This document shows, piece by piece, positions 20,228 to 24,325 of a DNA stretch of 64,000 nt. Made by a program: the position numbers and the translations under genes. The notes under the pieces are model-generated. The model was not told the origin of the DNA and searched no databases. It saw only the letters and a program-made list of their open reading frames with translations. This DNA is from Promethearchaeota archaeon (GTDB taxonomy: Archaea > Asgardarchaeota > Lokiarchaeia > Sigyniarchaeales > SOKP01), in NCBI GenBank assembly GCA_019058445.1, contig JAHPZA010000004.1:224001-288000 (forward strand), written 5' to 3'. Position 1 is the first letter of the stretch; every line of letters begins with the position of its first letter.

Positions 20228-20556
20228 TTTAAAGTATAATTTAACATCCTCTTAACTATTCCCTTGAGAATTAAAAATTAGTCATTTTTAAATGTCAGTT
20301 ATTTTATCATAGTATTTGGATTAGCGTTAATAGTTAGGATAAACATAATAGAATAACAGAATAACAAGACAAATAGCCTGAACACCTCCAACAGCATCCA
20401 TAAAATAATAATTTTAGAATTGAGTGATAATCAAAAGGTTTATTAGGAAAGGAATTAATAATAAAAGCAAAATAATTCTATTTCCCACACTATTTCAGGT
20501 ATATTAACTTTCTTTATAATTAAATTTTGCTTTAGATACTATTCGTTTATCTGGAA

Positions 20557-21399
20557 TTAATTTTTACGGGAGTTCATAATCTTTTTTAGCTGTTTTCTTT
20601 TCTCCTCAAGAAATTTGTTCCAATCAAAAGCTAAAATAAAATACATTATGGTAAGTGTAACTAAGAGCATAATTGCTTCAGTAATAACAGTAGATTCATC
20701 ATTCACTTCAATTCCAGATGCCGCTAACCCTAAAATAATTAATATAGGGAGTAGAACGTAGATTGTGGTGGTAATTGTTTTTCCGATCCACCCCGCGATA
20801 ATTAATTTTGGGATACTTAATTTTTTTTCTGACATACCTAAGGCAATCCAAAGGGGATCATCAGGAATAGGAAGAGCAGCAGCAATAAACACATACAGAT
20901 ACATTCTATTGGGATGTTCAATTATTAATTTGCCAAAACCTTCAATATTATGAAGGACTATTGATTCTTTATCTGATTTTTTTACAATAATTTTCGCACC
21001 GCGACCAAGTAAAAAGCTAGTAATTTCTCCTAAAGCAGCTCCAAGACCACCAGCTATCGCGATTCCCATAATTTCAAGCCAAAATGGACCGCTTACTAAA
21101 ATTTCCCCCAAAACTAAACCCCGTTTAGTATATTTTAAATAAATTGAATTAGATAAGCTAAACAACACAAAAGGGAATGGAACAGGAAATCCGATTGAAG
21201 CAGAACCAATGAAACATACGATAAGCGCAAACAAAAGAGCCCAATAGTAATTTGATCCTTCTGTTAAATTCGCAATATCTTGTCTAGATTGCATTATCGC
21301 TTCTTTAATGTCAGGAAACAATAAAAATAACAATAGATATATTATTACGGCTAAATAGAAAAACATAAAGACGCTGGTTAGCTTTTTATCGATTGTCAT
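20557..21399 (-). CDS. DedA/VTT (SNARE-associated-Golgi) family membrane protein
   Basis: FPVPF re-entrant segment, GGLGAALGEITSFLLGRG, AALPIPDDPLWIALG, GWIGK. Confidence 0.75.
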   Translation of the reverse strand: MTIDKKLTSVFMFFYLAVIIYLLLFLLFPDIKEAIMQSRQDIANLTEGSNYYWALLFALIVCFIGSASIGFPVPFPFVLFSLSNSIYLKYTKRGLVLGEILVSGPFWLEIMGIAIAGGLGAALGEITSFLLGRGAKIIVKKSDKESIVLHNIEGFGKLIIEHPNRMYLYVFIAAALPIPDDPLWIALGMSEKKLSIPKLIIAGWIGKTITTTIYVLLPILIILGLAASGIEVNDESTVITEAIMLLVTLTIMYFILAFDWNKFLEEKRKQLKKIMNSRKN

Positions 21400-21419
21400 A
21401 ATAACTCTGATACCCTTTC

Positions 21420-21806
21420 TTATTTTATGATTGAGATTTTGGTATTCATCCCATTCATTGCTTTTTGAAACAACTCGATATTTGCCGTAATTTTGCCAAT
21501 TTTATTAATTTTATTTGGCATTTCAATTGTTTCCAAAATAATAATCATTTCATCTGTTTTTGGACTATATACGATATCCGCTTTCTCAACGTTTCTAGTA
21601 GCTTTTGAGTCAGGTCCCTTTCTTATCCCAATTGGTAAAGTCCAATAATTTTTCGAGCCAAATCCAAATCTCCCTCTCAAAACAAAGGGCATTTTTCTTA
21701 GTATCGCATCTGCCGAAATGGGACCCAAATGTCTTGTTATAAGCCCCTCTACATTTCCTACGTTAAATATTTCTATTCGAATCTTTATATCTCCTTTACC
21801 AGACAT
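21420..21806 (-). CDS. Cyclophilin-like fold protein (DUF369/TM1367-like)
   Basis: P-x-S-A-x-A-I-L-x-x-M-P-F, VEKADIVYSP, NKIGKI pattern. Confidence 0.7.
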   Translation of the reverse strand: MSGKGDIKIRIEIFNVGNVEGLITRHLGPISADAILRKMPFVLRGRFGFGSKNYWTLPIGIRKGPDSKATRNVEKADIVYSPKTDEMIIILETIEMPNKINKIGKITANIELFQKAMNGMNTKISIIK

Positions 21807-21995
21807 GTCTTGTTAATAAAATAAATTAAAGTATATATATTATTTTAGATGGATGAAAATTTTGATCATCTTATCTAAGTAGTGGATTTTTAATAGCTGT
21901 AAATCGTTTAATAAACCTATAATAACGCTTTGTATTAGAGTTATTTTCAGTTTAATATGTTTTTTCCCAAATTCAATAAAAAATTAATAGTAAAA

Positions 21996-22003
21996 TTTAA
22001 ATA
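21996..22003 (+). promoter_or_regulatory. Archaeal TATA box (TTTAAATA) with A-rich BRE, positioned for a start at G22026
   Basis: AGTAAAA-TTTAAATA. The first T is 30 nt upstream of 22026, the first base of the terminal inverted repeat; no ORF follows. Confidence 0.55.
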
Positions 22004-22025
22004 TTCAATTTGTTATATTATTTGT

Positions 22026-22580
22026 GGACAATAGTAAGCATTGGTTTAAGTTACGTTAATACGGAACTAAACAATAGTAAGATAGAAACAGGTAATTAAT
22101 CGGTTCATAATTTCCGACGAATTTTTTTTTTTTATTCTTACGGAGATTGCACGTTTCTGAATTACATCTATAAATTTTCATTATATTATTAACCATTAGT
22201 ACACGAAGTACTAATCTACATTCAAATTTCAAAATAATCCAAAAAAATCTTTACGCTGGTGCTCCATTTTAAAGATTTGCCTTCAAGTTATTCCCGAAGC
22301 TAAGATTAATCCACTAATAACTGTGCAAAGTTGTACTTTAATTCCAAAAATGTGATTTAAAGTCGTTTTAACGAGTAGTAAATTTTTACACCATTAGGGA
22401 GTTCTAAGAGACTTTAAAGATCATTACTACATTACAACAAAATCTCATGTAAAATTAATGTGTTTTTTAAAATAGGGACTTATATTCCGAATGGTTTAGT
22501 TAAAAATTCTCAGGAGTTTTATACCCAGTAGAAACAGAATCTCAGAGAATTAAATAATATTCGGACTTTACTATTGTCCC
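22026..22580 (+). ncRNA. Candidate large structured non-coding RNA (~555 nt), family unassigned
   Basis: 5' GGACAATAGTAA (22026-22037) is the exact complement of 3' TTACTATTGTCC (22568-22579). Nested stems at 22041-22074, 22084-89/22153-58, 22195-202/22208-15, 22245-53/22270-78, 22356-64/22410-18, 22486-92/22559-65, 22505-11/22545-51. Upstream TATA, downstream T-tract, no ORF. Confidence 0.6.
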
Positions 22581-22592
22581 TCTCTTTTTTTT
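22581..22592 (+). terminator. Oligo-T terminator-like tract
   Basis: TCTCTTTTTTTT directly after the 3' strand of the terminal helix. Confidence 0.5.
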
Positions 22593-23448
22593 ATAGATTT
22601 TCCAATTCAATTAAATCTAATTTACTATCGATATCATAAAACATGTACTTCTTAGAAATTTCTACAGCAATAATTCTTTTTCCTTGTTTTACCATATAAT
22701 TAACTATCTCTCTAATAGTTTTAACTGATTTTTTTTTCTCAGCGCTAATAATTTCTTGAATGAAGTCATAGGGAAATAAAAAGATTGGAACGATTTGATT
22801 AACAGTTTCAGAACTAGTTATTTCACTTAAGTTTATCTTTTTAATTCTCTTAAGAAAGTTTTGCATCTCTTCATTTTCTATATCAGCTACAGAAATTATT
22901 TTTGATTGAATTCCTTTTTGAAAAAAAGTTTTTTGAATTTTTCTGTAAAATATTAAAGGTTTTTTTTTAATTACACTCAAATTATCTTCGATAAACGAGA
23001 AAATCTCATTTAAGAGATGATGCTGAAAAATCGTATCTCCAGGAATGATAAGATATACATATCTATCTTGGTAAAGCTGCTTATTCTTGGTAAAGGAAAG
23101 GAAGGAATAAAGCGGTCCTAATTTATATTCATCTGTCGCATCAACCACATACAGGATATTATTTATCTCTGCATTATATCGTTTCAATCTAGCAATAAAT
23201 TCATCAATTTTTTTTGCCAAATATCCTTTTACTATTGCGATTTTCTTAACACTCAAATTTATTAATAAATCAATGGTAAATTGAACGATTGGCTTGTTAT
23301 TTAGAGCAGGGATTTTAATTAATGGTTTTGGAGTGTTTTGTGTAAGTTCTTGAAGACGAACACCTTCTCCAGCACATAAAATAATCGTAAAAAGAGATTT
23401 ATTCCATTCCTTATTTGGTTGTGACAATTGTGTTCCCATCCAAGTCAA
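22591..23448 (-). CDS. Sugar-phosphate nucleotidyltransferase (NTP_transferase family)
   Basis: IILCAGEGVRL...TPKPLI signature, PGDT, DIDS; start uncertain (overlaps map). Confidence 0.85.
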   Translation of the reverse strand: MTWMGTQLSQPNKEWNKSLFTIILCAGEGVRLQELTQNTPKPLIKIPALNNKPIVQFTIDLLINLSVKKIAIVKGYLAKKIDEFIARLKRYNAEINNILYVVDATDEYKLGPLYSFLSFTKNKQLYQDRYVYLIIPGDTIFQHHLLNEIFSFIEDNLSVIKKKPLIFYRKIQKTFFQKGIQSKIISVADIENEEMQNFLKRIKKINLSEITSSETVNQIVPIFLFPYDFIQEIISAEKKKSVKTIREIVNYMVKQGKRIIAVEISKKYMFYDIDSKLDLIELENL

Positions 23449-24325
23449 TTATTATAGTGTGCTCTTGTTGAGCCACAAATTCACCAGATCTCTCAATCAA
23501 AATGGGATAATGATCAAGTATGTTCTTTCTTACAAATGCATCAATAGTTCTTTGTATTTTATTCTTCGGTATTAAGTTCTTATTTTCTAAAAATCGAGGG
23601 GAAAAAGGGAGGTGATTAGTATTTTTTTCAATTTTATTCATATAACCCTGCTGTTCATAGGGTAAGTTTTTCTTTTTTCGTTTAGCAAAACGATAAATAT
23701 AGGAATGTTTCCCATTTACTACTTTTCCTACTCCTGATGTAGTAAATGGTTCACACGCATATGCATCACCGGGTTTTAACACTTCGCTATGTAACGTTTC
23801 TTTATAATTTGGTATAAAAGGCCCCGCATGCAAATTATATTGCTTTAATTCATGACCACCTAGATTAGTAATTGGTCGTAAACCATGACTGATTATTTTT
23901 TGAGCAATGACTTCTCCTAACTCATAAAGTTTAGTTCCTGGTTTAAATATTTCAATTGCAGCTTCGAGACCCTCCTCTGCGGCATCTATATACGTTTGAA
24001 GTTTAGGATCTTCACCTAAATTTAAAGTTATCGCTGAGTCTGCAATATAACCATTGAAGTGAGAGCCAATATCTATTTTTAATAAACCACTTTCGGGTAT
24101 TAAGGTCTTATCATCAATTACGGGACTATAATGTGCTGCGACCTCATTTAAGGACATATTAACAGGAAATGATAATTCACAACCATTTTTGTAAATCTCA
24201 GCTTCAATTTTATTAGCCACATCTAAAAAAAAAGCTCCTGGTTTCACAATCTCTTTTGCTAATTTTTTAGCAGCAATCACGGCTTTTCCTGCTTTAATAT
24301 AATCTTGAATATAATCTTCAGTCAT
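23411..24325 (-). CDS. map: Methionine aminopeptidase type II
   Basis: FPVNMSLNEVAAHY, KIDIGSHFNGYIADSA, NLGGH, LHAG, EPF, QEHT. Confidence 0.95.
   Translation of the reverse strand: MTEDYIQDYIKAGKAVIAAKKLAKEIVKPGAFFLDVANKIEAEIYKNGCELSFPVNMSLNEVAAHYSPVIDDKTLIPESGLLKIDIGSHFNGYIADSAITLNLGEDPKLQTYIDAAEEGLEAAIEIFKPGTKLYELGEVIAQKIISHGLRPITNLGGHELKQYNLHAGPFIPNYKETLHSEVLKPGDAYACEPFTTSGVGKVVNGKHSYIYRFAKRKKKNLPYEQQGYMNKIEKNTNHLPFSPRFLENKNLIPKNKIQRTIDAFVRKNILDHYPILIERSGEFVAQQEHTIIIDLDGNTIVTTK

Follow-up and report, generated by a model that had tools for sequence, protein, structure and literature searches.

A probable new family of large structured non-coding RNAs, about 555 nt long in the window genome, from one family of Promethearchaeota

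To our knowledge, almost no large structured RNAs are known from archaea besides rRNA, RNase P RNA and SRP RNA, and none has been described from the Asgard archaea, the closest prokaryotic relatives of eukaryotes. The nearest comparisons for such an RNA are archaeal RNase P RNA (RF00373) and eukaryotic MRP RNA, archaeal SRP (7S) RNA (RF01857) and the bacterial RNAs OLE, GOLLD, ROOL and raiA.

Here we describe a locus within a 64,000-nucleotide stretch of DNA from a member of the Promethearchaeota (hereafter, the window), which we consider highly probable to be the gene of a stable, abundant and independently transcribed non-coding RNA of ~555 nt, encoded on the + strand and founding an undescribed RNA family. 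Like archaeal RNase P RNA and eukaryotic MRP RNA, this RNA is single-copy, abundant and several hundred nucleotides long, with ends joined by a terminal helix, several domains and a possible pseudoknot; unlike them, it matches no model, lacks the CR-I/CR-V P4 core, has a background G+C content, occurs in one family only and belongs to a genome with an RNase P RNA of its own. It resembles archaeal SRP RNA in its paired ends, elongated irregular helices, abundance and single copy, but matches no SRP model and is almost twice as long, and relatives carry their SRP RNA at other loci. OLE, GOLLD, ROOL and raiA are likewise large (~500–600 nt), conserved, highly expressed, lineage-restricted and found by comparative analysis; the present RNA differs from them in being archaeal with a BRE/TATA promoter, in lacking Rfam similarity, in being less G+C-rich and less ornate, and in its fixed chromosomal locus, as against the association of large bacterial orphan ncRNAs with phages or mobile elements.

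A possible further likeness concerns an internal uridine run. The Sm site is a single-stranded uridine tract of the RAU4–6GR type bound by an Sm ring, and a run of the form AAU6–12 on or between stems recalls Sm-class RNAs (snRNAs, yeast telomerase RNA) and the ligands of Sm-like archaeal proteins. Unlike Sm-class RNAs, the RNA described here has no homology to snRNA models, and its uridine run is short in several genera.

The locus and its relatives

The RNA gene occupies an ORF-free interval (21807–22590, with no ORF of at least 60 aa) flanked by two genes on the − strand, one for a cyclophilin-like protein and one for an NTP-transferase (Table 1). It reads away from the cyclophilin-like gene and toward the 3′ end of the NTP-transferase gene, with which it is convergent. 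An initial annotation, made from the sequence alone, had proposed a ~555-nt ncRNA with its own promoter and terminator at this site; direct reading confirmed the positions given for the TATA box (30 nt upstream of G22026), the terminal T8 tract and an internal T12 run. Transcription starts at or near G22026 and the RNA ends at or just past 22579, before the oligo-T run, into which the primary transcript probably extends. The gene has a G+C content of 28.7%, compared with 31% for the genome and 46% for the RNase P RNA of the same genome, and the longest ATG-initiated ORF on either strand has a median length of 34 aa.

Table 1. Coordinates of the RNA gene, its signals and structural elements, and its two neighbours in the window.
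Feature	Position	Strand	Basis
Cyclophilin-like protein gene, 128 aa	21420–21806	−	Weak Pfam matches
Archaeal promoter: BRE-like TTAATAGTAAAA, then TATA box TTTAAATA (21996–22003)	21984–22003	+	Conserved in relatives
RNA proper, ~554 nt, first to last base of terminal helix	22026–22579	+	Metatranscriptome contigs
P1 5′ strand GGACAAUAGUAA	22026–22037	+	Perfect complement of 22568–22579; compensatory variants in relatives
GCAUUGG box, adjoining P1	22038–22044	+	Sequence conservation, nearly invariant across genera
5′ hairpin GGUUUAAGU ... AACUAAAC around CGU-UAAU-ACG	22043–22072	+	Kept in close relatives
Hairpin UCCG (22113–22116)/CGGA (22141–22144), loop carrying T12/U12 (22122–22133)	22113–22144	+	Direct reading
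Variable central part, local hairpins UUAGUAC/GUACUAA and AAAUCUUUA/UAAAGAUUU	22196–22279	+	Kept in nearest relatives only
Junction and possible pseudoknot: UUUAAAGUC (22356–22364)/GACUUUAAA (22410–22418), crossed by GUAGUAA (22375–22381)/UUACUAC (22424–22430)	22356–22430	+	Two-sided changes in genome G003
Long irregular 3′ arm: UCCGAAU/AUUCGGA, AAUUCUC/GAGAAUU and inner stems	22487–22565	+	Fold and relatives
P1 3′ strand UUACUAUUGUCC	22568–22579	+	Compensatory variants in relatives
Oligo-T terminator T8, overlapping the NTP-transferase stop codon (22591–22593, −)	22585–22592	+	T-run after P1 in nearly all relatives
NTP-transferase gene, 285 aa	22591–23448	−	Pfam NTP_transferase

By blastn, matches to the element were confined to three congeneric genomes. 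The cyclophilin-like gene occurs in 111 of 121 family genomes and in all 13 genera, and at loci with both neighbour genes the transferase lies 480–800 nt off, with an ORF-free gap between them. From the syntenic gaps of the 13 genera we extracted 99 elements of 311–632 nt. They share one design, in which TTAATAAnAAnATTTAAATA is followed by a spacer of ~24 nt, (U)GGACAAUAG, a few variable bases and GCAUUGG, with AAUCGGAGC-nn-CUAUUGUCC and a T-run at the far end. This collection of syntenic intervals, which the initial annotation had suggested, bears out its gene model: promoter, both ends and terminator recur in the 99 gaps, as does a covarying terminal helix (P1, described below). Among 56 diverse relatives, the promoter core A.ATTTA[AT]ATA is invariant or nearly so and stands at a constant distance of ~24 nt from GGAC. 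A CAT or TAT ~12 nt upstream of GGAC and a TT immediately before it are also conserved (22009–22025 in the window; alignment columns 37–50) and, judged by sequence, look like a proximal promoter element and an initiator common to all genera.

The RNA gene is present in one copy per genome in 13 of 13 sampled genera, nearly always between the NTP-transferase and cyclophilin-like genes. In one genus (g6; locus L154, G025:C32:41423-44448), the RNA gene is short, at 361 nt, and is found ~9 kb away from the cyclophilin-like gene; its promoter, ends and terminator are those of the other members. It follows that the gene is independent of its neighbours and that synteny is not obligatory.

A rearranged RNA gene was seen at one locus of the window's own genus (L005, G002:C170:1778-4967, reverse strand, ~275–1690). 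Here the 5′ part runs into a divergent 3′ end (...TTACTATTTTCC and T8) similar to the G003 version, followed by an inserted 128-aa ORF (P0001) with no Pfam family and then, adjoining the transferase gene, by the 3′ domain of the window once more, in a copy of 92% identity, an arrangement which indicates that the 3′ domain was duplicated around an inserted gene.

The range of the family was explored with two models. A covariance model of the 3′ domain (R1) found one locus per genome in 92 of 131 family genomes, scoring 45–104 bits on the + strand and 31–37 bits on the − strand of the same loci, and had no match in 19 genomes of three sister families. A sequence model of the promoter and 5′ end (R2) matched a single locus in the window's genome, as it did in 24 of the 25 family genomes searched; across 125 genomes from 30 other families of the phylum it returned a single 21-bit match, to its promoter half only. 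In other families of the order, every occurrence of the pattern GAYAATAG..GCATTGG lay in a coding-like context and lacked both a TATA box and a 3′ complement. TATA..GCATTGG yielded no site with a terminal helix and T-run in five genomes from outside the family (f1), of which three, each a single contig, belong to family f2. Weak cyclophilin-like homologues in f2 have no long adjoining gap, and a search for related loci from the NTP-transferase protein found none. As far as searched, the RNA family is confined to one family of Promethearchaeota (Asgard archaea); the initial description of the RNA as Asgard is correct, for an RNA found in a single family of the phylum.

Position between two genes, together with a 58-aa ORF on the − strand (22056–22232), might suggest a long UTR, an antisense transcript, a cis-regulatory leader of a neighbour or the mRNA of a small protein. 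We regard this as very improbable: the promoter does not face the cyclophilin-like gene, the RNA and the NTP-transferase gene are convergent and meet at their 3′ ends, the flanking genes lack RNA cover where the element is covered hundreds-fold (see below), the g6 gene stands 9 kb from the cyclophilin-like gene, and no ORF is conserved among elements of 311–632 nt.

Terminal helix, internal structure and known RNA families

The pairing of the first 12 nt (GGACAATAGTAA) with TTACTATTGTCC near the T-run, given in the initial annotation, is indeed perfect, and the resulting 12-bp helix, P1, joins the ends of the RNA. P1 is paired at 97.4% in register, versus 27–42% when the partner is slid. Compensatory substitutions between genera affect at least seven positions (1, 2, 4, 6, 9, 10 and 11): C-G at position 4 gives way to U-A, G-C or A-U, A-U at position 6 to G-C or U-A, and position 10 shows three pair types. 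Covarying variants include GGAUAAUAG/CUAUUAUCC, GGAGAAUAG/CUAUUCUCC, GGACAUUAG/CUAAUGUCC, AGACAGUAGGC/GCCUACUGUCU, GAACAAUAG/CUAUUGUUC and GGGAAAAUAA/UUAUUUUCCC. U.G intermediates are frequent (for example GGAUAAUAG/CUAUUGUCC); as these would be A.C on the − strand, they fit the + strand only.

Two further observations concern P1. A direct repeat, ACAATAGTAAG, occurs at 22028–22038 and 22071–22081, so that its second copy could pair with the P1 3′ strand in place of the first, giving an alternative fold; genome G002 retains this second copy and G007 nearly does, in G003 it is altered, and the family consensus lacks it. A reading of P1 as a bulge-helix-bulge motif (circularisation) was rejected, the helix being uninterrupted and the back-splice joint absent from RNA contigs.

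The perfect 12-nt terminal inverted repeats, the intergenic-like G+C content and the modest folding z-scores on both strands (given below) could also befit a DNA-level element or chance AT-rich stems, whether a MITE, inverted repeats, a replication or recombination site or a decayed gene. We give this next to no credence and consider it refuted. The 4.6-Mb genome holds one full copy, the only other match being a 31-nt low-complexity one, and target-site duplications are absent; a single-copy element is not a MITE, and dispersed copies with target-site duplications were what the initial annotation had named as the sign of one. Moreover, 13 genera carry the element at an orthologous position, its G.U pairs fit one strand only, its promoter and terminator are conserved, and RNA cover is high and limited to it.

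The RNA folds as P1 closing one or more 5′ hairpins, a U-run hairpin, a variable central domain, a junction helix and a long irregular 3′ arm. For the GCAUUGG box next to P1 a search revealed no conserved pairing partner, the best candidate site being present in 26 of 70 sequences and competing with another helix; UGUUGAAU, GAGACAUUnAAACA and AAUAGG are further boxes conserved in sequence in most genera. In other genera the place of the 5′ hairpin is taken by a hairpin of other sequence, the U-run hairpin design is repeated as CUGG/CCAG in another genus group, and the central region holds a helix, UGUUCC-AGUGCU/AGCACU-GGAGCA, in which both sides have changed in several lineages. Most genera have UCUUGU/ACGAGA as the junction helix; the window has UUUAAAGUC/GACUUUAAA in its place, and G003 has AAGCA/UGCUU. 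For the crossing helix GUAGUAA/UUACUAC there is one compensatory change, in G003, a sequence change which would lend partial support to a pseudoknot.

In other genera the homologue of the 3′ arm consists of GCUUUGAUU/AAUCGGAGC, at its base, and inner helices of varying sequence. This base is paired at 91.6%, versus 31–51% when slid. It contains two conserved U.G pairs, at whose places the window version UCCGAAU/AUUCGGA has C-G; U.G, being A.C on the other strand, points to the + strand. The second helix of the arm differs by group (AUAAUUG/CAAUUAU, CAGGA/UCCUG or CCAGA/UCUGG, with AAUUCUC/GAGAAUU in the window). Pairing amounts to 82.7% of cells in the 3′ domain as a whole, compared with 35–52% in slid controls, and none of 500 shuffles attained this value or the covariation score. 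A K-turn reading of the arm's base, as AGC-UUU-GA/GA-GCU, is contradicted by the Watson-Crick pairing of UCCGAAU/AUUCGGA in the window.

The internal stems listed in the initial annotation are all present in the window and fared unevenly among relatives. AGAAAC/GTTTCT is replaced by the compensatory AGAAAT/ATTTCT, TTTAAAGTC/GACTTTAAA by AAGCA/TGCTT and GTAGTAA/TTACTAC by GTACT/AGTAC in close relatives; the TCGG/CCGA hairpin is broken in G007 and G003. Several helices are conserved and do not covary, the central parts are poorly alignable, and with an alignment this rich in U and G a genome-wide scan of column pairs for covariation gave too much noise. The element of the window has a minimum free energy (MFE) of −110.3 kcal/mol on the + strand (z = −2.6) and −111 on the − strand (z = −2.0), and one typical relative has z-scores of −1.8 (+) and −0.75 (−). 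The proposed comparison with shuffled sequences gave an advantage of only ~2 sd, and with z-scores this modest it is comparison among genomes, not thermodynamics, that places the structure beyond chance. In a typical member, the MFE and centroid folds both give P1, the 5′ hairpin, the central helix and the 3′ arm.

All 4,227 families of Rfam 15 were scanned, with no match at gathering threshold in the whole window, noise only at E ≤ 10 in region 21800–22700 and no match at E ≤ 1 in 12 diverse family members, so the statement that the RNA belonged to no recognised family holds. The scans disposed of several candidates individually. Archaeal RNase P RNA (RF00373), OLE, GOLLD, ROOL, HEARO and raiA were among the models with no match at these thresholds, and ARAGORN reported 0 genes of the tmRNA or tRNA type in 21800–22700. 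Box C/D sRNAs are defined by C (RUGAUGA) and D (CUGA) boxes, with a K-turn by the terminal stem; here only sub-threshold matches on the − strand were seen (SNORD75, 17.8 bits against a threshold of 50; ceN103, 21.1 against 55). A literature search, in which subscription papers were incompletely covered, retrieved no description of such an RNA.

The initial annotation had entertained a very divergent RNase P or RNase MRP-like RNA, on account of the end-paired architecture and of a box just 5′ of the P1 3′ strand (conserved as AAUCGGAGC, AUAUUCGGACU in the window) that loosely resembles CR-V. This reading is largely refuted and now hardly tenable. RNase P and MRP models had no match at the locus even at E ≤ 10, and none at E ≤ 1 in the 12 relatives, the scan of all 4,227 families giving no MRP match; the CR-V-like box pairs locally with GCUUUGAUU at the base of the 3′ arm, not in a long-range helix of the P4 type; and the check for a normal RNase P RNA elsewhere in the genome located a bona fide archaeal one at G000:C3:7495-7803 (127.5 bits).

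Archaeal SRP RNA was likewise rejected. RF01857 has no match at the locus, and full-length SRP RNA was found at other loci in 24 of 31 related genomes (E 1e-9 to 1e-20), including G003, which carries the RNA gene. The archaeal SRP model had no match over the window's own assembly (G000; 10 contigs, 92.6% complete), which also holds nearly no rRNA, the 3′ end of the 16S gene alone being present, at the end of contig C6. The SRP and rRNA genes are probably unassembled, in which case their absence from G000 means nothing.

Transcripts in natural communities and the internal U-run

Sampled words of the stretch are present in several metatranscriptomes. Four RNA runs from four studies (one of rhizosphere, two of wetland and one of sediment) were compared with positions 20500–24000, on which 4, 33, 6 and 36 contigs were placed at 88–99% identity. 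Apart from one contig of 3.8x, RNA contigs are confined to 22021–22605, where they overlap to tile the whole gene (22031–22579); summed word depth on the gene reaches 728, and the flanking genes are bare but for that one contig. These contigs are assemblies of related strains and so speak for presence and selective abundance, not for strand, exact ends or a single molecule. No RNA contig covers 21904–22020 or the sequence from 22606 on, which is weakly informative on the ends; in one run an Illumina adapter follows immediately after 22579, a hint that the 3′ end is the last base of P1. The assignment of a large ncRNA to the + strand is backed by conservation, covariation and strand-specific wobbles together with this cover.

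In one contig (run X12, depth 93) position 22148 is followed directly by 22234, so that 85 nt of the variable central region are missing. It most likely represents a strain with a shorter variable region, RNA processing being possible and less likely.

The loop of the U-run hairpin contains U6–U12, after AA or CAA in most genera; it is shortened to U4–5 in some genera and is therefore not a universal feature. In RNA contigs the T-run of the window has 1–4 T fewer, varying by strain; length variation of this kind is usual for homopolymers, and the exact length is accordingly not fixed. U-tracts drive termination by archaeal RNA polymerase (PMC8716108); on that basis the U-run should end part of the transcripts, and a shorter 5′ isoform is plausible. 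The U-run may therefore act as a leaky terminator and may yield a 5′ isoform of ~100 nt. That the T12 run could terminate transcription had been raised at the outset as a caveat; the concern is real and not fatal, as RNA contigs bridge the run (for example 22047–22259 and 22076–22212).

Taken further, the same features might indicate two or more separate small RNAs, namely a 5′ sRNA of ~100 nt ending at the T-run, with the rest made separately or representing read-through noise. Most genera conserve a T-run ~100 nt downstream of the start, archaeal RNA polymerase terminates at U-tracts (PMC8716108), and in two of the four runs the first bin has the greatest summed contig depth, a measure that cannot rank parts of the gene. 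However, RNA contigs span the T-run and tile the remainder, no second conserved promoter was seen, and the 5′ end covaries with a partner ~540 nt downstream, which requires one molecule. We judge separate small RNAs improbable and retain a single large RNA.

Nature and significance of the RNA

The evidence against a new ncRNA family includes the background G+C content, folding only ~2 sd beyond shuffles and a long T-run that should terminate many archaeal transcripts. Within the reading of a single large RNA that we prefer, its role can be approached by analogy. Invariant boxes set in sequence-variable helices resemble the RNAs that scaffold ribonucleoproteins (RNPs) and ribozymes, which favours an RNP subunit, and we tentatively propose, at somewhat less than even odds in our own estimation, a ribonucleoprotein specific to this lineage, with the RNA as its scaffold or RNA subunit. 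In such a particle the conserved boxes, taken as single-stranded, would be sites of protein or RNA recognition, and the U-run loop, by analogy with Sm-class RNAs, would be a candidate site for a Sm-like archaeal protein. The more specific proposal of a catalytic or scaffolding subunit of a novel RNP machine of one Asgard lineage, maybe built on Sm-like proteins at the U-run, is possible and rather less likely.

One gene per genome, a strong conserved promoter, a conserved architecture and very high natural abundance are what one would look for in an important cellular RNA. As the RNA is restricted to one family, claims about the origins of eukaryotes must stay modest. The ~100 aligned sequences with defined ends provide a concrete target for structure probing, pull-downs and cryo-EM. 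Were the reading as part of an RNP machine true, this would be the first large lineage-specific archaeal RNP RNA besides those of RNase P and SRP; and if the RNA belongs to a new RNP or is a ribozyme, it would open a new area of archaeal RNA biology.
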